Below, piece after piece: positions 9,467 to 32,700 of a DNA stretch of 64,000 bases (position 1 is its first letter; every line of letters begins with the position of its first letter). The notes under the pieces were generated by a model that was not told where the DNA came from, did not search any database, and was given only the letters and a program-made list of their open reading frames with translations. Origin of the DNA: a virus (lineage: Duplodnaviria; Caudoviricetes); the IMG/VR virus record IMGVR_UViG_3300005805_000001, positions 1-64,000 of that record; one strand, 5' to 3'. Made by a program: the position numbers and the translations under genes.

Positions 9467-10201
9467 ATGGCAACCCAAAGGGAACTGATATACACGGTAA
9501 AAAACATCCTAAGGGGTGGTCAAATAACCGATGATGACACAATCACGGATCGTCAAGTGGCTTTTCTGATTGATGCTGCAAGAGCCACTTTGCTTCGTCA
9601 ACAATACAATAGGGGACAAAACCTTTCAGACAATAACATACAGACCGTGCCTTGCATGGCTGTTGAACAGGTTGACACTTCCTTTATGCCGGGATTTCCT
9701 TCAAACTGCACGGTATACAAGACAATCAATCCTCTTCCAAAACCGATTGAATCAAAAGGCAAGGACCTTATAACGGGAATAACTTCCCCTGTTTTGGGAA
9801 GCCTTTCCTATGAATACATACCCTATTCGCGTTTACCTTACGCCGGTTTTACCAGGTTTAAAAGACCAATGGTAACTGTTTTCAACAGGTATGTCTATAT
9901 GATAGACGCCCCTTATACAATCAACATAGCGATAAGCGGGGTATTCGAGGAACCCAATGAGCTTTCAACATACAATGATTGTGAGGGACAACCTTGTTTT
10001 GACTGGGATACTGAATATCCCATGTCTTCCCATATGATTGATGCTGCCATTAAAATGGCGGTACAAAACCTTTCATTGACAATAAGGACACTTGCAGACA
10101 GGACAAACACCGGTGCACATGAATTGGAGTCACAACTCAATTCAAACGTAGGTGGCAAGTTCGGGGCTGCACAGTCAAGTTCAAAATCATCCGGTTCATA
10201 A
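9467..10201 (+). CDS. crAss-like tail ring/tubular protein
   Basis: 244 aa. The helical N-terminus (ITDRQVAFLIDAARATLLRQ) and C-terminal YPMS..MID..IKM pattern fit ring proteins. It lies immediately before the IHF-like gene. Confidence 0.65.
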   Translation: MATQRELIYTVKNILRGGQITDDDTITDRQVAFLIDAARATLLRQQYNRGQNLSDNNIQTVPCMAVEQVDTSFMPGFPSNCTVYKTINPLPKPIESKGKDLITGITSPVLGSLSYEYIPYSRLPYAGFTRFKRPMVTVFNRYVYMIDAPYTINIAISGVFEEPNELSTYNDCEGQPCFDWDTEYPMSSHMIDAAIKMAVQNLSLTIRTLADRTNTGAHELESQLNSNVGGKFGAAQSSSKSSGS

Positions 10202-10711: not shown

Positions 10712-11608
10712 ATGCAAATAGCCAAATATACCTCCACAAAGGAGATCATAAACAATTTCATGAGGAACACGGCTTACAATGAGCATGTGAACCTTGGTGA
10801 CATGGCTTACTGGGTATACGAGGCAATGGAACTCATAGGGTTTCCATTGCAATACATACCCAAAGTCATTGGGCATAAGAACGATTCTCAATACATGCTT
10901 GGCGGTACAAGCGCAGTCCCTGTTACTAACGCGACACAGGAGCATCCTGCCGAACCCCATACACATCTTACCTCATACGAAACAAGCACCACGATAGGGC
11001 ATTACAAGGTTGAACTGCCTTGTGATTTCCATAAACTCATGGCTGTGTCGGTTGACGGGGTAATGGCAGTACCTGCCTCAAGCCTGTTTCATCATCTGAT
11101 TGACAGTGATTGTTGCGGTGATTTCACAGACTCGAATCCTCCCGAATTGTTTTATGACAACTTCGGGAATGTCTTTTCCCCACAGGCTTTACCGTTGAAC
11201 ATATACCTTGCGACCAATCCTCCGTCATTTACCATAAACAACAACTTCATGACATTCAATGTCAAGGAAGGAAAAGTGTGTATGGCATACTGGGCTTTTC
11301 CATTGGATGATGAAGGGTTTCCACTCATACCCGATGACATAAAATACAAGAGGGCGGTATCAAGTTACCTTCAATACAGGATGGATTATATCATGTGGAG
11401 ACAGGATCTTTTGACAGACAAGGTATATGTCAAGTCTGAACAGGATTGGATGTGGAACGTGGCTTCCGCTTCTTCACATTTGAAGACTCCTGATCTTAAC
11501 CAGATGGAGGCGATGCGTAGACAGTTTACCAAGATGATTGTCCGTAACCAGGATTTCCGTACAGGCTTTGCAAACATTTCACTTCCAGGATACAGAGGAA
11601 GATATTAA
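10712..11608 (+). CDS. crAss-like tail ring/tubular protein (P22 gp4-like)
   Basis: Contains W..EAMELIG, VELPCDFHKL, F.INNN...FNVKEG.V.MAY.A.PLDDEG.PLIPD and lies directly upstream of the muzzle gene. Confidence 0.7.
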   Translation: MQIAKYTSTKEIINNFMRNTAYNEHVNLGDMAYWVYEAMELIGFPLQYIPKVIGHKNDSQYMLGGTSAVPVTNATQEHPAEPHTHLTSYETSTTIGHYKVELPCDFHKLMAVSVDGVMAVPASSLFHHLIDSDCCGDFTDSNPPELFYDNFGNVFSPQALPLNIYLATNPPSFTINNNFMTFNVKEGKVCMAYWAFPLDDEGFPLIPDDIKYKRAVSSYLQYRMDYIMWRQDLLTDKVYVKSEQDWMWNVASASSHLKTPDLNQMEAMRRQFTKMIVRNQDFRTGFANISLPGYRGRY

Positions 11609-11631: not shown

Positions 11632-14600
11632 ATGAAACAATTCATAAAGGATTTAGGTGGTGCAGTAAACAAGGACCTGGGATTCAGTAAAGTCAAACAG
11701 AATGTGGTTTATGATTCACAGAATTTCAGGATTACTCCCAATGATGACGGTACTTTTGTTGTACGTACAAACATACGTGGCAATGAAAACATACTTACCA
11801 TTCCTGACGCACCCACCGAATGGCAGATAAAATTCAATGATTCCTTGAAATTTATTGCAGGTAACAAGTATCGTCTAATTTTACAAGGACAGAATTTCGC
11901 AACAGGTGTAACAGGTAGTTACACTTTTGACTTTGATTATGTAACTGAAACGATATTCTATCAGGAACTTGTAGGAGGTAACGGGTATTCACCGGGAGGA
12001 TTGAACGGGCAAGCCTTGCTTCCAACTTCTTTTCTTTACGGTTCAATAAGCGCCGTTTCCCCTACGTTTGATTATCTTGTAATATCCGGTAACTTTACTT
12101 CCCTTACGATATTATCCGTAACACAACTCTTTCCAGCCGTTACTTATGGTGAACTTGTGATTAACGGTAATTTTTCAACAAATCCACTGGGAACCTGGAC
12201 ATATATACTTCCATGGACATGGGATAACATAAACAATAAAATGGATGCGGTAAATGCAAATGGTGAAACTTTGCAACAGGTTTTCACTACGCTTGCATAT
12301 GGACAGTTATATACCGTTGAGTTTGATGTGACTATTACATCAGGAGACATGCTTGTACTTCTGGGTTATCCGGACCCTAACCAGACAAGTACTCCCCTTA
12401 TAACAGCCACTGGATCATATTCATATGACTTAAGTACCTTGTCATTGGTTCAGACATTGACGTTTTTTCCAGGTAACAATTTTACCGGAAGTATAGACAA
12501 TGTAAGTATCAAGGCAAAGGAATTCACAGGATTCATTGACCTTACACTTGTAAAACCGGCACAACAAAACCTCAGGATAATAGGTTGGACTACTTTGCGG
12601 GATGACATAATCCTCATAACAACCAATGGTGCGTTTAATCCCGATGATCCTGCAACAGGACCTTTTACATCATATGGCCAGATCTGGAGACTCACATATG
12701 ACAAGGGTGGAAACCTTGTTTCCCCTTCGAATTACAATTTGACATTGCTTTACAATGATGAATTGAACCTCACGGTTTACAGACCGATTGCCAATCCCGG
12801 TATGATTGAGACAAGGTATGAAAACCCGAGTATGACTCCAATATACTGGACTGACAATTACAACACCCCTAGAAGAGCAAACCTTGCAGATCCGGAACTT
12901 ATCACATTGACACCCGAAGCACTTGCATTGCTTCCATCCTTGTCATTGGACATACCCATATTGACAAAAATGTTGGATGGCGGTAATTTAAGAACGGGGA
13001 CCTACCAGATAGCCTACAGGTTAAAAACCCCTGGAGGAACAGAAACAAGATTCAGTCGTTTCAGTAAAATGATTCCCATCATAGATGCTCCTGAAACAAG
13101 CAGTCTTTTAAGTTATTATCCGATAGCTGTATATGATCCCCTTACAGGAATCACAAGTTCAACTCCAAGCGCACCTGGACAAGAGACAGGGGCAAATGCA
13201 AACAAGTCAATAGAAATAAGCATATCCAACCTTGATACGAATTACACTACGATAGAAATAGTTACGCTTTATTACAATACACCTGAATCAATACCTGAAT
13301 GTCACATAGTAAAAACAGATGCAATACCACCTTCAGGTACATACATATCGGTAATAGATTCAAGTGACAATGACATTCCAATTACAATTGACGAACTTAC
13401 CGCATTTAGCGCTTCAATTGTAAGATGTAAAACATTGGCGACCAAGGCTCAGACATTGTTCCTTGGCAATCTGAAAACCACTGATTTGGATTTTGAGTTT
13501 GATACCCGTACATACAGGTTTCCGATAAACTCCACCACGACAAAAATAAAAAGTACTACAAACGTCGAGTATACCATCAGGGATACGGATTACAAGATAA
13601 CACAGGTAGGACCTAATCCTGTTGTTCCTTTTGACGTACCTGAGGATTTCGACTGTATACAGGATTATGATTCACAGGCACCTGATTCGTTTTATAACAA
13701 CCTTTATCTTCCGAATTCCGAGATCCTTGGTGGGGAAGGTCCGAATATAAAATATGTCTTTATAACCGAGAACATGCTTTTGGATTCAAAGGTAATGACT
13801 CAAAATGTTGGAAGAGGGGCTAAAAACGTCGACAGATATACCACAACAATCACAGGTGTCAATGGTGTCACCTTTGAAAACGTAAATTCCTTTCAAAACA
13901 ACTCGTCACCTTTCCTTTATGATACAATTGTAGGATACAGAAGGGATGAGATGGAAAGGATAGGCATAGTCTTCTTTGACCAGTTTGACAATCCTTCCTA
14001 TGTATCCTGGATAGGCGACATAAGGTTTCCACACCAGTTCATGGTAGATCCTGTTACGAATGAAAGAACAACCTTGTGTTCTGCTTCACATCAGGCAAAG
14101 GTTACACCTAATTACGTATATTCCACTCCTGAAGGTCCCATACTTTTCAAATCCACTGTTGCAACCTGTGAAAGAAAAGATCCTGCAAGTACTGAATTTA
14201 ACCTGATAGGCAACATAATGGGGTTGCGTATAACAATAAAAAACTTTACCGGCATACCTTCTTTCTTTAAAAAATGCGGCATAGTCAGGGTTCCCAAGAA
14301 GGAAACTGACAGGCGTATAATAGCCCAGGGATTTGTCAGGCCTACATATAAAAATTATGGTGGAGACAGTGGGGATGAAAACTGGTTGTTTACAAACAAC
14401 ATTGACATTGGAGGAATATCACCTTGTTCATTAAACTATGAAGACAAAGGATGGTTTTGGCCCGATGTATTCAGTTTTGTAAGTCCTGAATTCCTGTTTA
14501 ATGTTTCAGATCCAAATGTCCGTCCAATTGATAAACTTGACATTGTAGGCACATACCGTAAAACAGCCTTAAAGGATAATGGATACCTATGGTCTTGGAT

Positions 14601-16833
14601 CGTGCCTAATGACGGAGGTACTTGGAATGGAACCAAGGAAGATGATAATGGAGAGGACAATTACTGGGGTTTCCTTACAAAGAACTATTACATAGAAGAC
14701 AGGGCTTTTACTCCCGGGCCTGTTAAAATGTCAAACAGTGATAACCCTTATATAATTAGAAACACTTTTAATATTCCTAACAAAGTTACACAAGGTATAG
14801 CTTTTCCAAACAGTAACCTTGAAGATGCTTATGGCGTAGGTGTGGTTTCACCTATTCCTCCTTCTACCAATCCCAGAACAATATATAACTGCAGTATAAA
14901 ATATCCCAATGCCAATGATTGGATAAGTACGAATGCTAACTGCGGTGGCCTTAATCCAAGTGGTGGGCGTGCGGCAGGTGATTTCCATTCTCACGGTAAT
15001 AACATGGTATTACTCCAATTGGGCCCTTCTGATGTTACTAATTTTAATTCATCTGCATTTGGTGGACACAATTACATGCTTAATGTCGATAAGCTTCACC
15101 AGCATTATGAATTTGGTAATGCCGGTATAGGTATTCCGGATGCAAGAGGTCTCAATGGATACATGGCAAACTATGTACGTAATGTCCAAAACCAATACGG
15201 CGGTAATTCCTTTTCAGACAGGGCTTCTTCGGAATATGTATCAACAAACTGCATAATAGACATAAGTGACAGGACCAATCCCATAACCACAAAGGTTCTC
15301 GGAGGTGATACTACCGTTGAAGTCATGGATTATAAACCCCATTTGCTTGACCAGTCAATGGCAAAAAGGGTTCGTGATGAGGTAAGTGGAGGTGACAATG
15401 AATCAAACCTGACTGTGTGGTTTTTGTTTTTTCCGTGTGAAACGTCCGTAGCCATTGACTATCGTAGAACCTGGCAAAACGTAGTATACAATGATTGGCG
15501 TAACACTAATACAAATAGAAGTGAACTAAAAGGCGCCTTTAATTATAATAGCGATCGATGGTACGATTCAGGACAAGGGGGATATAGACCCTACATGACC
15601 GAGTTTTCAGAACTCTTCAATGTAAGTCCGGTATTCAATTACTATCCTGAAAAGAAGTTTGTAAAGTATTTTCCAAGACCTTACAAGGGATTGGAACAAA
15701 ACATTTTTGATTGCCGTGTATGGAAGTCTGAAAAAAAGATAGATGGTGCGCTAGTTGATGCATGGAGTATATTCAGGTCTGCGGCAATACTTGATGTTGA
15801 AAGCAAATATGGTCCGATCAATAACCTTGTGGTTTTTCAAAACAAGATGTTATATTTTCAAGACAAGGCTTTTGGACAACTTCAGATCAATGAGCAAAAA
15901 CTGATAAACTCGGTAGGGGATACCACTGATCTTGTACTGGGGTCATCCGGTATTCTTGAAAGGTATGATTACATATCGACCCAGACAGGAACAAAGCATC
16001 AGTTCAGTATGAGTATATCCGACTATAGTCTTATATGGTTTGATACCCTTGCACGTAAGATCTATAAGTTTGGAGACGGTCTTAAACCTGTAACTGATTT
16101 AAAAGGATATCATGCCCTTTTGTATAACGGTACTGAAGGTAAGTTACAAAACAATGACAATCCTTATTTATACAAGGGAGTCCATTCAACCTATGATTAC
16201 AGGTTCAATGAATTTTACATGACTTTCCTTTCGGAGGAAAACCAGTTTACACTTGTATATAATGACATGGTTGACGGGTTTGTGGGAGAGTATACCCATT
16301 ATCCGGTAGTCTACATCAATGACAAGTCAAATATATTTTCCGTACCTTACAGTGGAGGTGCCAGTGAGATATACATCCACAACTATGGTAATTACGGCCA
16401 GTTCTATGGAGTAGTGAATCCTTCAAAACTCAGCTTTGTAGTGAATCCTGAACAAGGGTTGGAAAAGGTGTTTACCAACATGGAGGTTACCGCTGAATCA
16501 TTTAAGACCGTTTTTGGTTATGATCAACCTGACTTCAATGATTTCTTTGATACCATGCGTGTGTATGACAATTATCAGAACACGGATTTCATATCCACAA
16601 GCCTGATAGCCAAGAAACACAAGACTATATGGGACGTGAAGATTCCTTCGGACAGGGTGCTTGATGTGACCCAACCCATATTCAATGCCGCAAACCTCAG
16701 TTCCGTACGTCCCGCACTTACGCGCAGGATGAAAGACAAATGGTTCATGGTGGATTTCATTTACAATAATACCGATAATAACAAATTCGTGGTGCACTTT
16801 GCTAATGCACTTTACATGATAAACTCACGATAA
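11632..16833 (+). CDS. Muzzle / tail stabilization protein (P22 gp10-like, crAss001 gp44-like)
   Basis: 1733 aa with IYWTDNYNTPRR, YRRDEMERIGIVFFD.F...S.V.WIGDIRFP, the C-terminal D..SKYGPINNL...QDKAFG.L.INE and YDY.FNEFYMTF, at the canonical position. Confidence 0.8.
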   Translation: MKQFIKDLGGAVNKDLGFSKVKQNVVYDSQNFRITPNDDGTFVVRTNIRGNENILTIPDAPTEWQIKFNDSLKFIAGNKYRLILQGQNFATGVTGSYTFDFDYVTETIFYQELVGGNGYSPGGLNGQALLPTSFLYGSISAVSPTFDYLVISGNFTSLTILSVTQLFPAVTYGELVINGNFSTNPLGTWTYILPWTWDNINNKMDAVNANGETLQQVFTTLAYGQLYTVEFDVTITSGDMLVLLGYPDPNQTSTPLITATGSYSYDLSTLSLVQTLTFFPGNNFTGSIDNVSIKAKEFTGFIDLTLVKPAQQNLRIIGWTTLRDDIILITTNGAFNPDDPATGPFTSYGQIWRLTYDKGGNLVSPSNYNLTLLYNDELNLTVYRPIANPGMIETRYENPSMTPIYWTDNYNTPRRANLADPELITLTPEALALLPSLSLDIPILTKMLDGGNLRTGTYQIAYRLKTPGGTETRFSRFSKMIPIIDAPETSSLLSYYPIAVYDPLTGITSSTPSAPGQETGANANKSIEISISNLDTNYTTIEIVTLYYNTPESIPECHIVKTDAIPPSGTYISVIDSSDNDIPITIDELTAFSASIVRCKTLATKAQTLFLGNLKTTDLDFEFDTRTYRFPINSTTTKIKSTTNVEYTIRDTDYKITQVGPNPVVPFDVPEDFDCIQDYDSQAPDSFYNNLYLPNSEILGGEGPNIKYVFITENMLLDSKVMTQNVGRGAKNVDRYTTTITGVNGVTFENVNSFQNNSSPFLYDTIVGYRRDEMERIGIVFFDQFDNPSYVSWIGDIRFPHQFMVDPVTNERTTLCSASHQAKVTPNYVYSTPEGPILFKSTVATCERKDPASTEFNLIGNIMGLRITIKNFTGIPSFFKKCGIVRVPKKETDRRIIAQGFVRPTYKNYGGDSGDENWLFTNNIDIGGISPCSLNYEDKGWFWPDVFSFVSPEFLFNVSDPNVRPIDKLDIVGTYRKTALKDNGYLWSWIVPNDGGTWNGTKEDDNGEDNYWGFLTKNYYIEDRAFTPGPVKMSNSDNPYIIRNTFNIPNKVTQGIAFPNSNLEDAYGVGVVSPIPPSTNPRTIYNCSIKYPNANDWISTNANCGGLNPSGGRAAGDFHSHGNNMVLLQLGPSDVTNFNSSAFGGHNYMLNVDKLHQHYEFGNAGIGIPDARGLNGYMANYVRNVQNQYGGNSFSDRASSEYVSTNCIIDISDRTNPITTKVLGGDTTVEVMDYKPHLLDQSMAKRVRDEVSGGDNESNLTVWFLFFPCETSVAIDYRRTWQNVVYNDWRNTNTNRSELKGAFNYNSDRWYDSGQGGYRPYMTEFSELFNVSPVFNYYPEKKFVKYFPRPYKGLEQNIFDCRVWKSEKKIDGALVDAWSIFRSAAILDVESKYGPINNLVVFQNKMLYFQDKAFGQLQINEQKLINSVGDTTDLVLGSSGILERYDYISTQTGTKHQFSMSISDYSLIWFDTLARKIYKFGDGLKPVTDLKGYHALLYNGTEGKLQNNDNPYLYKGVHSTYDYRFNEFYMTFLSEENQFTLVYNDMVDGFVGEYTHYPVVYINDKSNIFSVPYSGGASEIYIHNYGNYGQFYGVVNPSKLSFVVNPEQGLEKVFTNMEVTAESFKTVFGYDQPDFNDFFDTMRVYDNYQNTDFISTSLIAKKHKTIWDVKIPSDRVLDVTQPIFNAANLSSVRPALTRRMKDKWFMVDFIYNNTDNNKFVVHFANALYMINSR

Positions 16834-19800
16834 TGAATAATTGGCTTGACAATTATGACGATAAGGAAATGGCTAAAAAAGCCCGCAAGATTTCCAAAGG
16901 AACAAGAATACCACGTGTACCAAAGTCAAGGCTTGAAACGGAAGACAGGTTGGGATTTCCCGTAGATGAAAGTGACTTGCCTGTTCCAGGGGTTCCTGTA
17001 AACTTTGACATACTTATGAACATGCATAAGTTCAAGGTTCCGAATCCTGATTATTATGAACAACAACCAATGATGATTGCCGCTGATGGAGGTCCTATAG
17101 GTCCAGAGGAAGAACAAAAGCCTGGTGTAGCAAGGGTCATGGGTGTTGATAAGGAAGGAACCCCTGTATTACGTCCTACCACAGGATACTATCTTCCTGA
17201 GGTGGAAATATTCGCGGACGCGCCTGATACCTATAACAACTATATCAGAAACAAGTATAAGGACGCAGGTCTTGGCGTAACCATGTTTGGAATGCCTTTG
17301 GACTACGCTTTTGGATTTCCCCAGGCGGCGATGACCAAGGCGTTTACAGGCAAGTACCAGCTTCCTTCAGAAGCCATGGGTATTGAGAATCCTGTAGTAG
17401 CGTTATTGACGGATGCAGCACTTGATCCTGTGAATATTACAGGCGCTGGTTTATTGACCAAGGAAAAAGCATTGGCTGCTCTAACCTCTAGTAAGGAATC
17501 AGGAATGCTTTCCAATGCTTATAAATATAATCCTTGGGCGTTTAAACCTAATCCTGAAGCTGGCTATAGAATGATTGGTGGAAAAGAAGGTTATTTAGAT
17601 GCTATAGTTTCTGGAGAAATAAGACCTACAGGTAGATATGAACATGCTCATTTTAATATTGGACAACCTTTAAATCCAAATAGACTTTCACCAGAGGAAT
17701 TAATTCAAGCTGGTAGTCCTGGTGGGTATAAGGGTCCTTATATGGCTGAAATGAAAGAGGGAACATGGCAAAGAATGTCAGATGCTTTTCCCAATAATCC
17801 AGAAATGCAAGAACAGTTTAGGTTACTAGGAAAAGACAAAGATGTTTGGCAACACCCATTACTTGGACATATAAAAGTGGATGATCCAAGACTAAAACTT
17901 TATAAACAAGATTGGTTAAGAGGATACAAGGAAGTTCCTAAAAAAGAAGTTGGTGGTTATGTGACTGATGAATATAAAAAGGTACGCAGTACCGTACCAC
18001 GTGTATCATACACTGAACCTTCAAACATGTACACCGGACCAACTACCCAAAGAGGAATAACCTTTGCCGAAGGGGGAGAAGTTGAAAGACCTACAGGTAC
18101 ATATGTTGAATCAATGTGTGGACCTGATCATGTGGAAATAAAAGATGAAAAAGGTGTTCCTGTAGAATGTATAAGTCCTGAAGAGTATGAACGCAGGCTT
18201 AAACCATTCAATGATGCCGCGCAAGCCAGATTGGAAGAAGCCAGAAAGAACGATCCTAATCCAAGCGGTAATCCAAAAGTGTCATGGAATCCAGCCATTG
18301 ACGGACCTTATCCTAGGATAAAAAGATACAATGAACCTTTGGAATCCAACTTTTCAAGTTATTGTCCTGATTGTTCTGCAGCTGAAAAAAAGGCAATGAG
18401 GCAGTATGAGAGATCCCAAAGGCGTTTACAAACAAACCAAGGCCGTAACATGAGGAGAGCTGAAAGGCAAAACTTTTTTGACAACATCGGTAATATAAAC
18501 CTGCGGATCCCGCCTCTTGGTATTGGCGCCTTTTTTCAAAACCTTTGGGATGCATGTCGTCCAGGTGAACGCTGTTTTAAATTTGAAGACGGAGGTCCTA
18601 CAAATCCTCCTGACAAGACATGGGAATTAAACCCAAATACTTATGATACTCCCAACAGGATAACCTTTCCTTTGATAGGCGGGATTGATTGGAGTACAAA
18701 AGGTTCACAAGGAGCCGGAGGTGACCGTGCAATGGTATTAGGGTATGAAAGGGAAGGATTTGGTTCCAATCTTTCCCCCTTTGTTGACTTGAATGCCGGA
18801 ATTGCCTCAGCACCTTCTTCTTATAAATATACTACATATGATTCTGGAGTGGGACAATCCCAGGCAGAGTTACCCGCTGGTGCGGGAGTGTTTGGCAAGG
18901 TAGGATTCAAACCTTCTTTTTCAGTGGGGCAATCATGGATACACCCTAAGACCGGAAAGGACAAGTACAAATCATCATTCTTTATAGAACCTAGCGTATA
19001 TGCTGATATAAACGCCGGAAAAATCCTGCCTAAGGAACAGTCAGAATATTCAAGTGTCATGAATCCTGCGGAAAACCCCAGCATGACAATGCTTGAACGT
19101 AATGACAAGTTACTTGACAAACCATGGTATGCCACGGTAAATCCCGGTGCAAGTCTTGATTTTTCAAAGACAGGTAGGGTGGGATATATGGATTCAAAGG
19201 GAAGTCTTGGACTCACTTATGACCAATACGGTCCTGGGGTAAAGGCTTCTGTAATCGGTGAAAACTTTGAAGGATCTCTTCCTTATGGTGTAAAGTTCCA
19301 TGCGGGATATCAACCAGGTGACAAAGGAAGAGGTTTTTATGGAGGAACTGAAATCCTGATTCCAATCGGCGAAAGTTGGAACAAAGTAAGAAGGAAAAAA
19401 CAAACTCCTACACCTCTTCCAGGGACAGTATCTACTCCACGTTTTGAAGATGGGGGACCTATTAAACCATTTGTAACATCTAATCTTAGTGAATATAACA
19501 AACGTAAAGCAGCATATGCTGATAGTTTAGATTTATATAATAGGTTTAAGAACAGTAAAGCTGATTACTATAATTTTATAAAAAGTCAAGGATTTGACCC
19601 TAGTCGTATAGAGGAATGGACTACAGATGGATATGTAAACACAGATGTGCATCCTAAAATAGGTGCGACTTCATATGGTATATTGACAAATAGTGGTGGA
19701 GGATATAATAGAGATGCTGCAGGTAATCCAATAAATTATACAACATATCCAACAATATCAAGTACTGGTATTCGTAGTTCTAGAAATGTACCTGATAATA

Positions 19801-20897
19801 GTGAACTTAATAAAAAAATAAGAAAATCGGCAGGGGCATCTTCATTTGGTTATGCTGTTTATGAAAAACCAGTACAAGAGGTAATATTAAGTAGACCTGA
19901 TATGAAACCCATGACTCCCATAGGGTTTTCCCAATATGAACCTCAACTTCAACAATGGAAAGGACCTATACCACAAATGGTTTCAGGTATTGACGAAACC
20001 ATTATGATGCCTAGCGGCGTTGAAATATCCAAGAAGCAGTTCATAAAACAGTATGGAGAACCTGCATGGAATAGAGCCACTAATAAAAAAGCAGATGGGG
20101 GACCTACGGGTCCTGGAGATCCTACTCCTAAACCAAAACCCGAACCTACATCGTGGTTGGATTATATCAATCCAATGAACTGGGGAGTATCAAACCTTGA
20201 TGATGCAGGTACTTTTGAACAAGCGTTTGCAAAGGCTGATAAGGAAAACATGGATGAGTTCATGTGGTATGGTACAAGATATCCTGTTGTATATGCTGAA
20301 ACTCCTAATAAACAAGAAATGTCTTACCAAAAAGAGTATCCAATGACCTATGCACTTGCATCAGGTCTGCAAAAACTTGACAGGTACAAGGAATATAAGC
20401 CTGAAGAATTTATGGACATGCTTGGAATGATACGCCAGGTTGAAAGCAGGGATGCAAACATTGCACAATCAGGTGGAGGACCCGGACGGGGATATTACCA
20501 GTTTGAACCTACTTCAGCCAAGACAGCATATAAAAGGGCAAAAACACTTGCAAGCGAGTTAAAAGACCTTACCGGAGTAGAAGTAAAACTTCCCAAGAAA
20601 TTTGATGAGAATTTCATGAATCTTGACAAGGATACCCAAAGTTTTTATACATTGAGTAATCTTGTAAAAGCGGCTACTGCAAGAAGGGAAGTTGATCCTA
20701 ACTACAAGTTCAATCCCCGTGAAGCGGGAAATGCATGGTTTGATTTGCATTGGGCTGGAGAAAGTTCACATCCCGAAGATGTTCCTGTAAGGATAAAGCA
20801 CTGGAACACCACGCATCCCAAGAACCTTATCAACAGGGTAGCCAAAAACAAAAAGAAGGATGGGGGAACAATAGATGATTTCATCAACAACCTTTAA
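16833..20897 (+). CDS. Modular virion cargo/ejection protein with GG-delimited modules and a C-terminal lysozyme-like domain
   Basis: Seven x-x-(D/E/V)-G-G motifs. The C-terminal module has RQVESR...GPGRGYYQFEP (lysozyme/transglycosylase-like). It follows the muzzle gene. Confidence 0.65.
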   Translation: MNNWLDNYDDKEMAKKARKISKGTRIPRVPKSRLETEDRLGFPVDESDLPVPGVPVNFDILMNMHKFKVPNPDYYEQQPMMIAADGGPIGPEEEQKPGVARVMGVDKEGTPVLRPTTGYYLPEVEIFADAPDTYNNYIRNKYKDAGLGVTMFGMPLDYAFGFPQAAMTKAFTGKYQLPSEAMGIENPVVALLTDAALDPVNITGAGLLTKEKALAALTSSKESGMLSNAYKYNPWAFKPNPEAGYRMIGGKEGYLDAIVSGEIRPTGRYEHAHFNIGQPLNPNRLSPEELIQAGSPGGYKGPYMAEMKEGTWQRMSDAFPNNPEMQEQFRLLGKDKDVWQHPLLGHIKVDDPRLKLYKQDWLRGYKEVPKKEVGGYVTDEYKKVRSTVPRVSYTEPSNMYTGPTTQRGITFAEGGEVERPTGTYVESMCGPDHVEIKDEKGVPVECISPEEYERRLKPFNDAAQARLEEARKNDPNPSGNPKVSWNPAIDGPYPRIKRYNEPLESNFSSYCPDCSAAEKKAMRQYERSQRRLQTNQGRNMRRAERQNFFDNIGNINLRIPPLGIGAFFQNLWDACRPGERCFKFEDGGPTNPPDKTWELNPNTYDTPNRITFPLIGGIDWSTKGSQGAGGDRAMVLGYEREGFGSNLSPFVDLNAGIASAPSSYKYTTYDSGVGQSQAELPAGAGVFGKVGFKPSFSVGQSWIHPKTGKDKYKSSFFIEPSVYADINAGKILPKEQSEYSSVMNPAENPSMTMLERNDKLLDKPWYATVNPGASLDFSKTGRVGYMDSKGSLGLTYDQYGPGVKASVIGENFEGSLPYGVKFHAGYQPGDKGRGFYGGTEILIPIGESWNKVRRKKQTPTPLPGTVSTPRFEDGGPIKPFVTSNLSEYNKRKAAYADSLDLYNRFKNSKADYYNFIKSQGFDPSRIEEWTTDGYVNTDVHPKIGATSYGILTNSGGGYNRDAAGNPINYTTYPTISSTGIRSSRNVPDNSELNKKIRKSAGASSFGYAVYEKPVQEVILSRPDMKPMTPIGFSQYEPQLQQWKGPIPQMVSGIDETIMMPSGVEISKKQFIKQYGEPAWNRATNKKADGGPTGPGDPTPKPKPEPTSWLDYINPMNWGVSNLDDAGTFEQAFAKADKENMDEFMWYGTRYPVVYAETPNKQEMSYQKEYPMTYALASGLQKLDRYKEYKPEEFMDMLGMIRQVESRDANIAQSGGGPGRGYYQFEPTSAKTAYKRAKTLASELKDLTGVEVKLPKKFDENFMNLDKDTQSFYTLSNLVKAATARREVDPNYKFNPREAGNAWFDLHWAGESSHPEDVPVRIKHWNTTHPKNLINRVAKNKKKDGGTIDDFINNL

Positions 20898-20924
20898 TCA
20901 TAAAACATAACAATACAACATACA

Positions 20925-23900
20925 ATGACTAAAAAAGAAATTTTGAAGATGACCGGACTTTCAGAGTCTGACTTCTATAAGAAATACCCTACACAGGAAT
21001 CCTTCATGATGGAATATGGCGGAAAGATTGCAGGATATGAATCTGGAGGCAAGGTAAGTTACTCGGCTAAGGATGCCGCAGCAGGTAAGGATATTGGAAA
21101 ACCCGGTAAGAACTTCAGCAAGATAGCCGCTGAAGCGGGTGAAAGATATGGATCTAAGGAAGCAGGACAAAGAGTCGCTGGTGCAATACTTGCCAAGCTT
21201 CGTGGTAAACGCAAAGATGGTGGTAAAATAACACCTGATGAATTTGTAAAAAAATATTACGGTGAAAAATATCAAAGCGATAAGGATCCTAAAACAGGTG
21301 AAGATTTAAAAGGTTATGATTATTGGAGGAACCGTATACTTTCAGAAGTTGATTTGCCTTTAAATGAAGATGGTGATATTATGTTTGAATCTGTTTCAGA
21401 CATATTGAAAAGAATGGAATCGGCCAATCCACAAGGTAAAGGGTTTTTACAGGTTCCAATAAACCAAACCGTTGTTAAAGAATTAATGGAGGAACAAAGT
21501 GATCTGTATGATACACCGGAAAATGTAAACTATAACCTTGTCAAGGAGAATGTAAAACTGAATGCAGTTAAAAACCCTGCCAATCCGGTACGTCCTTTTG
21601 GTTGGGGATACGACGAGGGTTCTATGGATGGCGGATATAAAAAAGGTGGAAGCATTACTCCCACTCCGACAGGAGATATATTCGACATGATGGGCATGTC
21701 TTATCTTAATGCTTATGGGAACGGATCATATACAAGAGGCAACAATCCGACTCCTTATCTTTCATTGACATCTACACAAATGCCTTATAGTCAATCTTTT
21801 GTAGAAGGTCTTCCTCTTGGAAGTGACGTATCAAACCTGACAACTGGAAGATACGGCATACAAGGCGGTATGCCATTAGGCGCAGGAAAAGGTGTTTACC
21901 TTACAGGTGAGGCTGGCGTTGAAAGAGGATTGTCCCGTGACGTAGCTACAAAGACTGTCAATCCTTATGGACAGGTAAGTAATTTTTCAATGACTCCTTG
22001 GGAAGAGACAAACAAACCTTATGGATCATTGGGCCTTAATTTTCAAAATCCTGAGAAGCAATATTACAAAGGACTTACAGGAAATCAAAGTAGTGCAGGA
22101 TTTGGAGTATCATATGGTAATGATATGATATCACCTTATGCTGATGTCAACCCACGACTTGCAGTAAACTTTGGTAGTCCTAGAAGAGGTAACCAACCAT
22201 TGACTGCTGCTGTAGGGGTTGATGCAAGATTACGTCCTTTTTATGAAAAGAAGTATGAAGAGAATTCCTGGAATGAAGCAAACAGTGGTGCAAGTTATGC
22301 CACACCGTATTTAGGCGCAAGTGGAAGACTTGGAGGTGGACTTGAGGTTGGTGCAAAAGGTGGGTATAACCTGATGACTGACAAACCCCAATATGGTATC
22401 TCGGTTACTAAGAAATTTCAGCAAGGTGGAGACATAGATGTCAAAGCGCCTTTGTATGATGAGACTGAACTTAATACTAACATTAACACAAACCTTTATG
22501 CATCAGGTAGTTACACACCAATGTATGCTGGAGGTAGTTATATTCCAATGTATGGTTTTGGTAACTGGGTTAAAGATGTAGGTAAACTTACATTAAATAA
22601 CCTTGCAGCTCCTTTGGAACATGTTTCTGGAAACAACTTTGTAAACTTTGATTATGACAATAAAGCCATGGCGGATGCCGCTGCAGTCAGTGAAGGATTG
22701 AGTGGCGCAGCTACGGATATAGTAGGTACTACTTTTTTAGGACCTGCATATGGAATGGCAAAAGGACAAGTTCAAGGTGTTACCAGAAATCTAGGAAGTA
22801 GTTCTGAAGAACAAAAAGGTGCAAGTAAGGCAGCAAATCAAATTGGACAGATTGCAGGAAGTACCGGAGATCTTATTTCAGGGATTTCTTCAGGTAATGT
22901 TCAACAGATTGTAGGAGGAGCTGGTAATGTTTTAGGCACAACAGGGCAACAACTTGGTTCTCAAGAACTTGGAGCTGTTGGACAGTTAACAGGTACAGCT
23001 TCCCAGTTTGTAGGTAGTGGAAAATCAACACCTTCTACAACAGGAATGGGGCCAATGGGAGACATGGTTTCTCCACAAAATGCTATGGGATTCTTTGCAA
23101 AAAATGGAGGTAATGTACCTGCATATATGCAAAATATGCGTAAATTCGCGCAAGGCGGTATGACCGTGGGTAACGTAGAAGGTAAGGAACTTTTGATTGA
23201 TCCTTACAAACTTGAAGCAGGAGGAGTACCCAAAATACTTGCGGATTATACGAATATTCCCCGACATCCTTCCGACGGTTCAATTGATGAACGTGGAACT
23301 GTCCCATTGCCTGTAAATAAATATGTTATTACCAATGCAATGCGTGAAAAATTTAAGAAATCTAAACAATCAAATGATGGATTATGGTCTTCAGCAATCA
23401 TGAATAAAATTGATTTTGACAAGAATAAAAAGGAACAGCAGGAAATGCAAAAGGCATCCAATGCTTATGGAAGGTTCATGGCAAAATACGGAGGCACCAT
23501 TGAAAAAATGTATGCCTGTGGTGGCAAGACTTATGGATGTGGAGGCATGACAAAATATGATGATGGAGGAGGAACTCCGTCATATCCATTGAACATGACA
23601 GGTCCAAGGGATATCCTTCCACTTATGTTTACAGATCCATATGTAGTTCCGGTAAATAACAACATCGGACTTACTTCTTCTATGATCGGCAGTTCATTGC
23701 CCCAAGGAGGATTGCAGTTATCCTTACCTTCATCAGGTGCTCCTGCCCTTCCAGCTGATTGGAACAGTGGAATGCGTTCAGGCGTATTAACCGAACCACG
23801 TTTAAACACTCCGGCAATGGGAAGTTCATTACCTCAGGGTTGGCAGTTACAAAACCCTTCTGCAGATGACGGTTGGAAATTGGATGCCAATCTTTCTCCT

Positions 23901-24614
23901 GCACGTGTTGATTTATTTGATGGACCTATGACCCTTATGGAACCTTTAGGACCTACAGGTAGCCAAGCACCAAGAGGACCTGTTGGAGACAGTGCTCGAA
24001 AAACCGAAATGGTATCAAGAAGGGATCCCAGTGATTATCTTGGACAACAATATGGAATGAACCCCAGTGTGCTTGGACAGATAGCCCCAATGCTTCCGGC
24101 CCTTGGATTGGGTTTGGAAGCCGCATTGTCAAAACCTTATCAGGTAAAGGCAAGTGACTACATGGTAAATGAGCGTTTAAAACCTGAAAAGATCAGTCCT
24201 AATTACCGTCCGATATATGAAGCTGAAAACCGGGCTGCTTATGACATTGCACAAATGGCTCCAGGTTCAGGAGGATATCTTGCAGGGCGCACTGCCTTGA
24301 ATGCAAATACAAAAAAGGTAATAGCTGATTATAAAAAAGCGTTGGAAGATGAATATGTAAAACAAAAACTTGGTGCTGACCAGTTTAACATTACCAAGGA
24401 TTTGCAGAATGCGCAAACCAAGTTGGCCGTTGATCAGTTCAACGAACAAAACAGGGCGGCACGTCGTAACGCAATGCGTGAACAGTTTGGTAAGAATCTT
24501 CCTGCAGCGTTCTTTAACCAGCAATACAACAACATGGGAATGCAGGCAATTCAAGCCCAATATCCTAACCAGCAATTCAACTGGGGTATCTTTGGAAAGT
24601 CAAAACCTGTTTAA
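20925..24614 (+). CDS. Virion cargo/ejection protein (crAss001 gp45-like) with repeated xxxGG motifs
   Basis: At least ten YxxGG/FxxGG/KxGG motifs, a Gly/Ala-rich membrane-like segment, a VEGKELL motif and a helical C-terminus. Confidence 0.65.
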   Translation: MTKKEILKMTGLSESDFYKKYPTQESFMMEYGGKIAGYESGGKVSYSAKDAAAGKDIGKPGKNFSKIAAEAGERYGSKEAGQRVAGAILAKLRGKRKDGGKITPDEFVKKYYGEKYQSDKDPKTGEDLKGYDYWRNRILSEVDLPLNEDGDIMFESVSDILKRMESANPQGKGFLQVPINQTVVKELMEEQSDLYDTPENVNYNLVKENVKLNAVKNPANPVRPFGWGYDEGSMDGGYKKGGSITPTPTGDIFDMMGMSYLNAYGNGSYTRGNNPTPYLSLTSTQMPYSQSFVEGLPLGSDVSNLTTGRYGIQGGMPLGAGKGVYLTGEAGVERGLSRDVATKTVNPYGQVSNFSMTPWEETNKPYGSLGLNFQNPEKQYYKGLTGNQSSAGFGVSYGNDMISPYADVNPRLAVNFGSPRRGNQPLTAAVGVDARLRPFYEKKYEENSWNEANSGASYATPYLGASGRLGGGLEVGAKGGYNLMTDKPQYGISVTKKFQQGGDIDVKAPLYDETELNTNINTNLYASGSYTPMYAGGSYIPMYGFGNWVKDVGKLTLNNLAAPLEHVSGNNFVNFDYDNKAMADAAAVSEGLSGAATDIVGTTFLGPAYGMAKGQVQGVTRNLGSSSEEQKGASKAANQIGQIAGSTGDLISGISSGNVQQIVGGAGNVLGTTGQQLGSQELGAVGQLTGTASQFVGSGKSTPSTTGMGPMGDMVSPQNAMGFFAKNGGNVPAYMQNMRKFAQGGMTVGNVEGKELLIDPYKLEAGGVPKILADYTNIPRHPSDGSIDERGTVPLPVNKYVITNAMREKFKKSKQSNDGLWSSAIMNKIDFDKNKKEQQEMQKASNAYGRFMAKYGGTIEKMYACGGKTYGCGGMTKYDDGGGTPSYPLNMTGPRDILPLMFTDPYVVPVNNNIGLTSSMIGSSLPQGGLQLSLPSSGAPALPADWNSGMRSGVLTEPRLNTPAMGSSLPQGWQLQNPSADDGWKLDANLSPARVDLFDGPMTLMEPLGPTGSQAPRGPVGDSARKTEMVSRRDPSDYLGQQYGMNPSVLGQIAPMLPALGLGLEAALSKPYQVKASDYMVNERLKPEKISPNYRPIYEAENRAAYDIAQMAPGSGGYLAGRTALNANTKKVIADYKKALEDEYVKQKLGADQFNITKDLQNAQTKLAVDQFNEQNRAARRNAMREQFGKNLPAAFFNQQYNNMGMQAIQAQYPNQQFNWGIFGKSKPV

Positions 24615-26731: not shown

Positions 26732-29700
26732 ATGGCGGATAGCAAACCTATTAACCCCGGAATAAGTTTTCAGGATTATGTACGATATACTGATCTTCGA
26801 AGGGACATTATTGCAGATCCTGTAAAAATAAAAGCTGAAAGTTCACAGTATGATGCGGGGTTCATATTACCCCAAGTCAACCCTGAACAGGCTTTAATGG
26901 ACCATCGTGCAAATGCACAACCCTGGGAAGACAAACTGGGTAATGGGTTGATGAACATGACTTCAAGCGCATTCACAGGTGCGCTTGAAAGTACCCTAGG
27001 ACTTGTATATGGCGCAGGTGCGGCCCTTGCTTCAGGGGATGCTTCCAAATTCTATAACAACGAGTTTGGAAAAAGCATTGATGCATTTACCGAAGCGACA
27101 CGTGAAAAATATCCGTTTTATTATTCAAAGGCGGAAGAGGATGCTTCTTTGCTAAGTTCACTTGGTACCGCTAATTTCTGGTATGACAAGGTTCTTGGAG
27201 GTGCGGGATATACGATAGGTTCAATGGTGACAGGTATGGGTGCAGCCCGTGCATTCAACATTGGTAAGAACGCACGTCTTGCACAATTAAGTGCAGAGGC
27301 TTCCGCGGCTGAGACTGCAGGAAACCTTACGGCTGAGGCTGCAAAGTTTGCACGTTGGGACATGGGTAAGCAAGCTGCGCTTGGATTTACCATAGCGCAC
27401 GGCGAGTCATCCATGGAAGCCCGTCAGACATACGAAGAGACTAAACAGAATTATGAGAAGTTGCGCAGTCTTGCACAGATGGATCCTTCCAATCCGGAGT
27501 ATGCCGACTACCTTAATCTTTCAGACGAAAAGATAGAACAACTCGCATCTGATGCGGCTGATACCAATTATCTCATGAACCTTGCAGTCACAGGTCCTAC
27601 CAACATGATGTTGCTTGGCAAATGGATCAATCCCGGTAAACAGGCTGCAATAAGGACATACAATGAGATAGGCAAAAGGACTGCAGTGGACGGTGCTACC
27701 CAGTATTTTGACAAGGTCGTCACCCAGAAGGGCCGCGCCTTGCTTAATGTCGGAAGCAAGTTCATGAAGGGTTTTACCTTGGAAGGTTCACAGGAAGGAC
27801 TGCAGTTCGCATCCAACAAAGCGGCTCAGGAATTTGTAGAGCTACATGGTTTACAGGGACAGGACTGGTTTACTTCATTGACTACCGGTCTTGCGGAAGG
27901 ATTGGGTGAAACACTTTCCACAAAGGAAGGTCTTGAAGCAATCCTTGTCGGAGGACTTGTCGGGGGACCTTTCGGTATGAGGGGAGCAGGTGCTGAACGC
28001 ACTGCAAAGGATGCAAGGACCAAGATACTTGTGGACAAGTTGAACTCCGATCCTACGTTTGTACAAGCCAATCCACTTGTACAGAAGATGCTTGCATCGA
28101 CCAATTCTGCAAACAATGCAGAAACATATTTGAAAAACGGTGACTTGTTCAATGCAAAAAACGCGGCTGACCAGTCACTAAACACATATATCAAAGGACA
28201 GATTGACGCAGGTACCACGGATTACTTTGTGGAACGACTTGAGTCAATCAAACAAATGGATCAGACGGAACGCGACAAGTTCTTTGGTCCGGGCACAACT
28301 CCTGCACAGGTTGACCAGGTGATAGACAAGGTCAGGAAACTTGAAGGTTTGTACAATTCCATTGAGACATTGTATGGAACTCCCGGTGGAACACCTGAAC
28401 AAAAACAAAGAAACACAATGTTGCGTGAAATGCTTTTCTTTTCTGCAAGCACCATCAAGGATGTTGAAGGACGGATGAGTAACATAGTGAAGGAACTTAC
28501 TGCAATGGCTAATCCCCAGGTTGCTGCAATTATTGCGGCACGTGAGATAGCGATCAATATGCAGAAAACCATTACACCTGAATCCGTACCGGCAGGAAAA
28601 GACTTTGAACAGTATCTTGCTGAAATGGAAGACCAGGCGGTAAAAGGATACAATGCCCTTCTTACACAGTTTATAAAAGACAATCCTGTTGAAGCTTCGC
28701 AAACCACACAACTTTTTGCCGACCTTAACCAATTGGATAAACGCAAACAGGAATTCATAAAGTATTACAATGAACTCAATGATCCTGAGAAAGCCGAAGC
28801 ATTGCTGAAGAAGACGCAGGAAACACTTGAGAAGACCGGTGAAAGGCTTCAAATGGAAGCTGAAAGGGAAAAGGAAAAAAAGACCCAGGGAAGAACGGTT
28901 CTTCAGGATGTGGACACTTTCCTGCCTTTGAACCCAGACAGGAAAAACGAGGTTACAAACAAAGGACAGGTTCTTGACATATCCAAGCTTTCAAACATAC
29001 AGCTTGATGAAATGCAGAAGAACCTTCAACAGGAAGAAACACAGGGTACACAGGTTTTACCTGAACTGAAGGCCGCAATTGCAAAAGAGATAGAGTTCAG
29101 GACAACCACGGATCAAATACGTTTAGGTATAAAGGAAAGGCTTCTTGGAGCTGTTACACCTGAACAGGTTGACGACATAATTTCCCAGATAGCCAATGAC
29201 GGTTCATTCAATGTGAATGCCCAGGAGATTGAGAAACTCAAGAAAAACCTGACAGAAGCCAATGAAGCCCGTATTGCACAAGAGGCCATTGCTGAAAACA
29301 TGAAGAACAACTTCAAGGGTGTCAATGAGTTCTTTCATGTGTTTACCACTTCCGAAGAGGAAAAAAGACTTGTGGCACAGGTTACCTCAGACCCTGAACT
29401 CAAGAACAAAGTCTACTTCAAACTTTCCACCAATCCCAATCCAGGGACCATAAGTAACATAGGAAAGGCGGAAACAAACACCCTTAATCCGCGTCTGAAG
29501 AAGCAATCACCTAACATACTGATAGAGGTATGGACAACCTTGCCTGACAATACGCAGGCAAGGATTGGAATGATGCCATGGTTCGGACAATATGTAAACA
29601 ATGTAGGTAATCCGATAGACATACAGAACCTTACATTTGATGAATATGTAAACCTTTTCCTTCCCGGACTTGATAAGCAAAAAGCAGCGGAGTTCATTGC

Positions 29701-32700
29701 AAGTGATCCTTTGAAGTATGATCTTGAAGCATTCAAGCGTGCACATGCCGACATGATGGACCTGTATGCAGGTGCGCAAAAACTCATGGAGAATGCAATT
29801 GCACGTCAATTGTCACCAGGTGAAACAAGGAGTCTTGTAGGTGTTAGCGTATCACAAGGTACGTATAATTTTGATGATGCCCCGTTGTCTGACTTCCTGA
29901 ATGAAAGCACGGTGAACAAACCATTCGTATTGAATGGTACACCTGTAATCATATCCACTTCGACTTTTGACGGTTCAGTGGAGTTTAGACCGGGAAAGGA
30001 AATCCTGCCTACCATGACTGTTGCATCAGTTCTTGATGCTGATGGTAATCCGGTGGTATTGGATGTCAATGGTGTTGGAGGATTGCGTGCTGAACTTCTT
30101 CCTGCATTGAATGCCTTGAGTCAAAGGGTTACACAGGCAAGGGTAGGTGAAAACATATACAACAAATACTGGATGATTGTGGAGGATCCACAAGGGACAG
30201 TAAAGATACCAGGTGTGGAAGGATCATTTGATTGGAGGCCTGTAAGTCCGAAATCAATGACTCCACAACAAGTTGATGAAATACTCAATAACCTAAGGGC
30301 TACTGCTGAAAAGCACGCTACATTAAAAGACGCCTCTGAAAAAGATAAAAACATGGCGGTATTGAGGAATATTTCAAACAAATTGTTCATAGCCGTTTCT
30401 TCGTTTGATGCCGTAAAATCCTTTAAGAACGTACAAATAGGATTCACATTGAGTCCTACAAATAAACTTACCTTGGAAGTTGACTTCAAGTTCAAGCCGG
30501 GTAATATGCCAAGAAATCAAGCCGAGACTGCAGATGTGAATCAAGGCAAGGTATACATGACCGTTCCTGATAATATACGCACTTCACAGGATTTAATAAA
30601 CTGGTTTAACCAGGAGTTGCAAAAAGATCAGACTCTTGTGTATAAACCCAGCATGGAGTCAAAGGGAACTGAAAGGGTTCCTTTTAGCATGAAAGGCAGG
30701 CTTGCTCCGATTACTCATACCAGCATGCGTATGAATTTCAGTTCAGGATCTGCAGAACAACGTCGAGGTATAAGGGCAATCAATCCTACGAATGTGTGGG
30801 ACAGTTTCTCTGTGAATGTAAGCAGGCTTAATCCAAGGGTGGATCAAAAGGTTGTAGTACAACCTGTAAGGACTGCCGCTGGTGCCGCAATGGCCCAGAT
30901 GGCAAGGACCTCTTCCACGCCACCTGTTACTGCCACACCGCAGACAGTCACACTTGCACCTGGACTTACATCAGGACAAGGTGAAGTCGCTCCTACAACT
31001 CCTGTTTCTACAGATATAATTACAGATAATATATATAATAATTTTGTAGATAAAAACATAGTTCCTGAAAATGTTTTAAACTTTATTGCAGATAAAGTAA
31101 TTAATAGATCTGCTTTATCACAAAAAGAGATTGCAATATTTAATGGAAAAACATCTGAAATAAATAAAATAATTAGAAATAAAGCCGCTTTAGGCGCTCC
31201 TACAACTCCTGCCGCTCCAGCAGCCATAATGACCATGGAACGTCTAAATCAGGTATGGGATGATATAAGGAACGGCAAACCTGTTGATTCATTTTTCAAT
31301 GAGTTTAAGGAAGGTTATGGCAGTAAGTATCTTTTTGTCGAAGACTTAAAGGACTGGTTTGAAAACAAGACCAACACAAAGGTTGCAGTCACCACGACTC
31401 CAGGACGCATAGCGCCTAATGCCGCTGCTGCCCCTACCACTACAACTACAATTGATGCAGAAAAAGCCAAGATTACATCTTCAGAGTTTACAGAGTTAAA
31501 AAGACTGGCTAAGTTTTTTTTAGAGAATCCTAAAGAACCTACTGTATCAGGAAGTGTTGTTACAAGATACCCAACTTTGTTTAAAACTGTTACTGATATA
31601 GAAAAAAGAAGACAGAAAGAATTAGAGGGAGAAAAATATTTTGTAAAAACTAATGCAGAAGGACTCAAAGCTGCTAAAGAATTTGTTGATAGAGTTAATG
31701 CTAAATATGATGCAGAACTAGATGCTTTAGGTGCTGCTCCTGCACAGGAACGTCCTTCACGTAGAAAATCCGCGGGAGGTGATGCGTTCACAGGTGCCAA
31801 CAGCATAGGTACTTATGATGAAGGTGAGGTTATTGACCGTGAGACGGCGATAGAAAACATCAAAGGACTTCTTCCTGAGTTCATAAGCATAGGTGAACTT
31901 CTTCCGACACTCGAGGCTTTGCGTGATGGAAGGATCACATTCGGTTCATTTTACAACAACATGGTGCGCCTGGCATCAAAGCTTGTGAAGGGACGTGAAT
32001 ACCACGAGGCGTTCCACGCCGTGTTCCGTACCATGTTCACCGATAAACAACTTGACGCACTTTACAAGGAAGCCAAGGCTTTGATGATAAGTGAGTTCAA
32101 GAAACAGGGAAAGACATTCGTACAAGCCTATGCTGAATGGAAAGAGGATCGTATAGATTATGAAAGTCTTCCTGAAAGCATAAAGAAAGACCTCTTCATA
32201 GAGGAGTGGATGGCTGACGAGTATCCCAAATGGAGGGAAGGCAAGTCAGTCGTGCCGAAGAAATCCACTACTCTATTGGGAAAGATATTCAATGCGATCA
32301 AAAGGTTTGCTGATTGGTTGACAGGCACGCCCACATTGGGAGAGGTCTTCCAATCCCTGGACGAAGGAAAGTTCAGCGGCGCAAAGAACCCTGTGATGAA
32401 CAGGTTCACAAGCGGTAAGATTGATACCATGGCAAGGTCCCAGATATACGTGGGTAACAGAATGGGAACCAACGGTATAACATACGCGTCATACCTTGAT
32501 CCTTCACTTGAGATGGTGCTTGTCAATACTATTGCAAGTAGGGTGATGGAGGCTCAAAAGACAAATCCTGAAGCTCCAGCAGATTATCTCATTGAGATGG
32601 AAATACTTAAATTGGGTGACAAGTTCAATGTGGATGATCCAATTTATAATCCTATCGCTGACAATCCATCATACAATGATGTGTTTGAAAAAGTTCAGGA

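Follow-up and report, generated by a model that had tools for sequence, protein, structure and literature searches.

All described podovirus ejection proteins of the outer membrane are alpha-helical; T7 gp14 and N4 gp52 are stored in the capsid without a signal peptide, expelled before the DNA and inserted into the outer membrane of the host (PMC13434306). How crAss-like phages pass the envelope of Bacteroidota is not yet settled, and no structures are known for the cargo proteins that they eject (PMC10172136, PMC13434306). In PhiCrAss001 the muzzle gene is followed by genes for cargo proteins of the virion; the first two products, C1 and C2 (gp45 and gp46), are expected to build a transmembrane channel (PMC10172136). 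Here we describe a module of a 1229-residue protein, P0002, encoded within positions 1 to 64,000 of the virus record IMGVR_UViG_3300005805_000001; this whole 64,000-nucleotide stretch is referred to as the window. A first-pass annotation had placed an outer-membrane beta-barrel-like module of a cargo protein at 21651–22418. Structure prediction indicates that residues 278–498 of P0002 most likely form a 12-stranded, antiparallel beta-barrel like those of bacterial outer membranes. The best explanation, to which we assign a probability of roughly 0.45, is an ejected protein with an OmpA-like barrel anchor in the outer membrane, not a DNA pore.

In its proposed role P0002 would resemble T7 gp14 and N4 gp52. 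However, those proteins are alpha-helical and essential, whereas the module is beta, the size of a monomer, and accessory. With PhiCrAss001 C1 and C2 the protein shares its gene position directly after the muzzle gene, but no sequence similarity to either was detected; moreover gp46 is predicted to be alpha-helical and gp45 to carry a transmembrane helix, and a barrel is described in neither (PMC10172136).

At the level of the fold, the closest systems are the KdgM, NanC and VhGalP porins and the autotransporter beta-domains of BrkA, NalP, EstA, AIDA-I, Hbp and EspP, which superimpose on the module model with Z of 11–13 over 152–215 residues and a root-mean-square deviation (rmsd) of 2.6–4.3 Å. 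The module resembles these 12-stranded outer-membrane barrels in size (about 220 residues) and in its alternating hydrophobic/polar (dyad) repeat. In contrast, its sequence identity to them is 8–15% with no Pfam match, it lies without a signal peptide in the middle of a 1229-residue phage protein, and no pore-filling helix is confidently predicted.

In OmpA the barrel is N-terminal; its last strand is internal and is followed by a linker and a periplasmic domain. The last strand of the module is likewise internal, ends in Phe and is followed by a Gly-rich linker and more protein. However, OmpA has eight strands, a Sec signal and an aromatic residue at position -2 of the last strand, and the module is preceded by 277 residues. 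Outer-membrane-barrel folds are also encoded by phages as stand-alone proteins (lambda Lom type, and the porin, DUF481 and Opacity-like proteins of BFVD, which are the best BFVD matches), but these are small separate proteins of 180–250 residues rather than modules of a giant virion protein. Lom-type proteins are exported via Sec in the infected or lysogenic cell. Full-text literature searches found no description of a barrel of the outer-membrane protein (OMP) type in a phage ejection or cargo protein.

Boundaries and predicted fold of the module

The features of the target gene are listed below in window coordinates.

20925–24614, plus strand: open reading frame (ORF) of the 1229-residue protein P0002; no signal peptide, no strong hydrophobic helix, no Pfam or PHROG family.
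21636–21650, plus strand: YKKGG punctuation motif directly upstream of the module (residues 238–242).
21651–21710, plus strand: conserved 20-residue junction motif of the TPTPTGD...SYLN type, with a predicted local distance difference test score (pLDDT) of about 30; the alignment shows it retained in barrel-less homologues.
21723–22424, plus strand: approximate segment absent from P0003, a 997-residue homologue that is 95% identical; it marks the cassette boundaries.
About 21756–22412, plus strand: predicted 12-stranded outer-membrane-type beta-barrel (module residues 36–254), from an AlphaFold2 (AF2) model, structural matches and the dyad pattern.
22383–22418, plus strand: last strand with invariant Phe, P-x-[YF]-x-h-[GS]-h-x-[KR]-x-F; a partial match only to the beta-signal of the machinery for beta-barrel assembly (BAM).
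22416–22430, plus strand: FQQGG punctuation motif, the Phe of which is the last residue of the module.

The interval 21651–22418 encodes 256 residues without stop codons (P0001), corresponding to residues 243–498 of P0002, and contains 15% Gly, 7% Tyr and no Cys. The Gly/aromatic strands quoted in the first-pass annotation are all found in the translation, which ends ...VTKKF; this Phe is residue 498 of P0002 and the first residue of FQQGG. The barrel had been placed between YKKGG and FQQGG, and both motifs indeed stand at the borders, but the first 20 residues (21651–21710) are a separate junction motif. Since barrel-less homologues keep this motif too, it lies outside the barrel. The G+C content of the module (0.40–0.44) is no different from that of the flanks and gives no sign of a foreign origin.

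The Sec signal peptide that is typical of outer-membrane beta-barrel proteins is absent from P0002, as had been proposed: the ORF begins with a hydrophilic N-terminus, and no signal-like sequence is found ahead of the module. Nor do the six large ORFs examined contain a hydrophobic helix with a mean Kyte-Doolittle value of at least 1.5 over 19 residues.

AF2, applied to an alignment of seven module sequences, returned an all-beta model with long strands, a mean pLDDT of 60 and a predicted template modeling score (pTM) of 0.53. The strand blocks score 65–80, and residues 1–64 of the interval fall below 50. When the model was compared with 48,161 PDB representatives using VIA-align, for which the typical best Z of models lacking a clear match is 7–8, 15 chains had Z of at least 8 and the best 50 were all outer-membrane barrels. 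The top match is KdgM (4pr7_A; Z 13.2, rmsd 2.6 Å, 152 of 171 residues), followed by BrkA (12.5), NanC (12.5), VhGalP (12.1) and NalP (12.1), with other autotransporter domains, FapF, the COG4313 channel, LpxR and Tsx lower in the ranking. We take nearly all of the top matches to be 12-stranded barrels. The model superimposes on whole 12-stranded barrels, and the module is accordingly predicted to be an antiparallel barrel that is closed and even-numbered in its strands.

Other structure-based comparisons point in the same direction. Nearly all Foldseek matches listed from the PDB are outer-membrane barrels or the organelle counterparts of these, although the matches are weak (E 0.012–0.2, template modeling score 0.3–0.47). 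Among BFVD entries, small proteins of uncultured phages match best, and several of them are annotated as porin, DUF481 or autotransporter beta-domain. All named neighbors in a protein-language-model atlas belong to OMP barrel families (Tsx, OmpG, KdgM, SlipAM), at a low recognition score. As a control, AF2 was run on a Gly/aromatic module of the neighboring protein and gave no fold (pLDDT 36), which indicates that a barrel is not an automatic outcome of the procedure. The soluble beta-sandwich or disordered chain that would have counted against the first-pass proposal is thus not what was predicted: the model is an all-beta barrel and its 50 best matches are outer-membrane barrels. Together with the conserved dyad pattern described below, the model supports an outer-membrane beta-barrel-like module at the level of the fold.

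Conservation of the strand pattern

In the single sequence we counted seven strongly amphipathic 10-residue windows, compared with 3.4 ± 1.6 after shuffling (14 of 500 shuffles reach seven). The signal is stronger in the seven-member alignment, which contains 12 non-overlapping windows in which conserved hydrophobic positions alternate with polar ones, versus 4.6 ± 1.8 when columns are shuffled (0 of 2000). The part of the barrel that is best conserved and most cleanly amphipathic is C-terminal (22002–22412). Here one face of each strand is 60–100% hydrophobic across the family (Ala, Val, Leu, Phe, Tyr), and the opposite face is 0–24% hydrophobic (Gly, Ser, Asn, Asp, Arg, Lys). The alternation of lipid- and lumen-facing residues over strands of 9–11 residues that is expected of outer-membrane beta-barrels is therefore found in the module, cleanly in its C-terminal part and weakly in the four N-terminal strands.

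Relationship to known families

Searches of Pfam and PHROGs with the whole protein, the module and the homologues identified no family. Among the OMP families of Pfam (OMP_b-brl PF13505, KdgM PF06178 and Autotransporter), none scored above the gathering threshold; P0001 and six homologues gave no match, and the short relative P0123 gave a sub-threshold match to OMP_b-brl (E 0.031, 14.9 bits versus a cut-off of 28.7 bits). A PF13505 search of the whole phage genome was also negative. PDB sequence searches with the protein and two profiles returned chance matches only (E >1) and no solved OMP. The module thus resembles an OMP barrel, yet no membership in a known family could be demonstrated.

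The family itself is small. Full-length relatives of P0002 are few (P0003–P0011), and an exhaustive phmmer search of 1.84 billion representative proteins recovered four matches to the module, all in large phage-type proteins and none of them a cellular OMP. When the P0123 module served as the query, no sequence other than the query itself was recovered. Scanning IMG/VR with the module sequence gave no match, the JGI metagenomes yielded one locus, and an IMG/VR scan with the family alignment yielded three loci, two of which carry the module. In total eight module sequences are known, comprising the phmmer matches, close relatives and P0129 (encoded by contigs L001 and L004). Four divergent members with 28–38% identity share 24 invariant columns.

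The module behaves as a cassette. In the alignment of relatives it is present in P0004, P0005, P0006 and P0008, cleanly absent from P0007 and from P0003 (997 versus 1229 residues, otherwise 95% identical to P0002), and replaced by unrelated low-complexity sequence in P0009–P0011. The flanking junction motifs are retained in all three groups. Because the cassette is lost or replaced while these motifs are kept, it is accessory and exchangeable: residues 278–498 constitute a rare, swappable accessory cassette.

Both borders of the module carry a near-identical 13-nucleotide stretch (21643–21655 and 22423–22435, 780 nucleotides apart) with the core AAGGTGGA, which covers K/Q-G-G codons. This stretch may provide microhomology for cassette exchange, or may be a chance occurrence.

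Two other parts of P0002 are also shared with other proteins. The most conserved part of the family is at 23130–23600 (residues about 736–890), with the motifs FAQGG...NVE..EL...P, GGVPK, HP.DGS and YGG...MY.CGG; a related motif block ends P0123, and no known domain was matched. Near the N-terminus, a 49-residue segment (21057–21203, residues 45–93) is 60–90% identical in more than 100 otherwise unrelated proteins of 680–1190 residues, some annotated with PF11450 and a few named SlyB-like, and is thus a very widely shared mini-cassette.

The last strand and the [FYW]xxGG motifs

The beta-signal recognized by BAM has the form GxxPhixPhi, in which Phi is aromatic (PMC13067283). The first-pass annotation had ended the module in such a signal, located exactly at the GG boundary. 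The final Phe is indeed invariant in all aligned module-bearing sequences and most have Gly at -5, but all members have Lys or Arg at position -2, so that the match is incomplete. As to its location, the Phe is shared with FQQGG; however, the same junction is present in barrel-less homologues, as FANGG in P0003 and FQEGG in P0007. Motifs of the type [FYW]xxGG occur 7–11 times per protein in most relatives, compared with about 1.5 expected from shuffling, although counts are lower in the neighboring protein P0124 (three) and in P0123 (one). Throughout 16833–24614 and in the homologues they stand at module junctions, where they might serve as linkers, recombination joints or protease sites. The Phe may therefore be read either as the end of a strand or as the first residue of a punctuation motif, and the coincidence of the two becomes less telling. 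In P0123, GG directly follows the final Phe, which indicates that in this protein the Phe tracks the strand and not the spacing of the motif.

Genomic context

The window is part of a complete 87,331-bp IMG/VR record of an uncultured virus with direct terminal repeats, and matches to crassvirus protein families identify the source genome as a crAss-like phage. Two features define the block in which P0002 is encoded.

11632–16833, plus strand: gene for the Crassvirus muzzle protein (PF25731, crAss_MUZ, E 3e-133), which defines the cargo block.
16833–20897, plus strand: gene for the 1354-residue neighbor P0124, upstream of the target, with a transglycosylase-like C-terminal region (phrog_3108).

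Upstream of the muzzle gene are Pfam matches to CrAss_Ring_2 (9467–10201) and CrAss_Ring_1 (10712–11608). Relatives of the muzzle protein with 24–27% identity are found in Crassvirales records, including Bacteroides and Cellulophaga phages. The muzzle gene is followed by ORFs of 1354, 1229 (the target), 697, 4296 and 1082 residues. P0002 is accordingly the second gene product after the muzzle, directly behind a hydrolase-bearing protein, and the series Ring_2, Ring_1, muzzle, 1354-residue ORF, target agrees with the position of crassvirus cargo genes of the gp45 and gp46 type, downstream of the muzzle gene in the tail and cargo block. The order of muzzle, hydrolase- or lysozyme-bearing and barrel-bearing proteins recurs in two divergent phage contigs (L003 and L004), and is thus seen in three phages. 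Homology to PhiCrAss001 gp45 or gp46 was not found, either as a Pfam family or in a tblastn search of 50,697 phage records (E 1e-5). From its position, we infer that P0002 is packed in the virion as cargo and ejected.

The central module of P0124 has homologues in proteins with Phage_lysozyme or SLT domains; its Gly/aromatic part (18597–19451) has three such homologues. We considered this part as a second barrel, but its fold is not established (AF2 pLDDT 36, pTM 0.24; atlas scores below 0.9). A separate 41-residue cassette of P0124 (17955–18077, residues 375–415) shares 78% identity with the N-terminus of P0010, which is homologous to the target, and we conclude that cassettes move between the two cargo genes.

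Two further ORFs of the window were examined. The 4296-residue ORF (26732–39622) has been presumed to encode the virion RNA polymerase, an identity that its sequence does not confirm: near its N-terminus it matches a single PHROG of unknown function, the three segments compared with Pfam gave no family, and a phmmer search with its C-terminal half matched no solved structure, phi14:2 gp66 included. A 282-residue protein (5521–6369) combines an evident signal peptide with numerous Cys residues and a segment of the LPVELLSF type that is typical for surface proteins of Bacteroidota; among 185,579 species genomes, a pattern scan detected no close relative.

Alternative explanations

Several observations weigh against an ejected outer-membrane anchor. 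The fold of the module is a prediction of moderate confidence resting on seven sequences, no sequence method ties it to an OMP family or to a solved OMP, and an alternating hydrophobic pattern by itself is also compatible with a soluble beta-sandwich. Conservation is poor in the four N-terminal strands, in which Arg occurs on the face that is nominally hydrophobic, and the basic residue at -2 stands where the beta-signal expects an aromatic one. Because no similarity to gp45 or gp46 was detected, it is gene position that assigns P0002 to the cargo. Finally, a module that is missing from P0003 and P0007 and occupied by other sequence in P0009–P0011 cannot be indispensable to the entry machine. 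Alternatively, the segment may be a beta-rich domain that is not in a membrane, either soluble or inside the virion, or its fold may be mispredicted, so that only its Gly/aromatic dyad composition is OMP-like. The pLDDT of only 60, the weak Foldseek E-values and low atlas score, the lack of sequence-level OMP membership, the modest enrichment of dyads in the single sequence and the dispensability of the module in close relatives are all consistent with such a domain. However, it would not be expected to have membrane barrels as all of its top 50 structural matches, with Z up to 13.2 versus the typical 7–8, nor a conserved Gly/Ser/Asn/charged face opposite an Ala/Val/Leu/Phe/Tyr face in strands of 9–11 residues, and a 12-stranded barrel without a plug domain cannot bury a hydrophobic core in its interior. 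We regard this explanation as somewhat unlikely. That the segment is instead a largely disordered spacer, rich in Gly, Ser, Asn and Tyr, between modules of an extruded protein is suggested by the low pLDDT (<50) of the first 64 residues, the Gly-rich character of P0002 as a whole and the low-complexity replacements in P0009–P0011. Yet 24 columns are invariant among divergent members, and periodic conservation over 12 windows with a pTM of 0.53 is unexpected of a spacer without a stable fold, which makes this even less probable than the release of the barrel by cleavage considered next.

The remaining alternatives accept the OMP-like strands but assign them different functions. The first-pass annotation proposed that the module is delivered to act in the DNA conduit or to block superinfection; in a version that adds cleavage at GG, this cleavage would free the C-terminal Phe as a canonical BAM beta-signal and release the OMP for one of these roles. 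The invariant Phe, the Gly at -5 in most members and the [FYW]xxGG motifs bracketing the module are compatible with cleavage. Against it, Lys or Arg at -2 departs from GxxPhixPhi, the Phe persists at the junction of barrel-less homologues and the module is accessory. Virions of PhiCrAss001 yield peptides from several regions of gp45, with no proteolytic processing mentioned (PMC10172136). Twelve-stranded barrels such as those of KdgM, NanC and the autotransporters are too narrow for duplex DNA, and a monomeric barrel of this size class is an unlikely conduit; only a few dozen copies would be ejected per cell, too few to mask or block receptors. Furthermore, the OmpA precedent for an internal last strand means that an OMP-like role does not need cleavage at GG. 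We consider cleavage and release improbable. More improbable still is a barrel-like module that serves as a decoy substrate, occupying or jamming the BAM of the host and weakening the outer membrane at the site of entry. OMP-like strands with a near-beta-signal in the last, followed by about 730 residues unable to pass BamA, would suit a decoy, and EspP-MBP fusions that stall on BAM offer a conceptual parallel (PMC13067283). But the idea is purely inferential, the copies per infection are tiny in number relative to BAM, and the non-canonical -2 residue speaks against optimized binding to BamA.

A possible outer-membrane anchor

The explanation that we favor, at the probability given above, is that P0002 is an ejected protein whose barrel serves as an anchor. 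As a cargo (ejection) protein, P0002 would be packaged into the virion and, at infection, extruded unfolded through the tail. The barrel cassette would then fold into the outer membrane of the host, whether spontaneously or through BAM on the periplasmic side. As in OmpA, the barrel would anchor the protein in the membrane, on one side of which the other roughly 970 residues would lie, and may help to hold the ejected envelope-crossing assembly in place without itself conducting DNA. The existence of a near-identical phage without the module suggests that it is likely an accessory aid specific to the host envelope.

A more specific proposal, which we consider doubtful, is that the barrel is carried unfolded in the capsid, injected without a signal peptide and assembled by BAM or spontaneously as a trans-envelope anchor of the entry complex, with exchangeable cassettes tuned to the host envelope. 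If true, this would be the first case both of exogenous, Sec-independent OMP delivery and of a beta-barrel as an ejectosome component in phages. It would raise a question for OMP biogenesis, namely whether BAM or the bilayer itself can fold a barrel coming from outside with neither Sec nor a signal peptide, and at about 220 residues the module is small enough for direct in vitro work. The route by which crAss-like phages cross the envelope matters, as they are among the most abundant viruses known, and a host-type beta-barrel used as a swappable cargo cassette would differ from the alpha-helical solutions.

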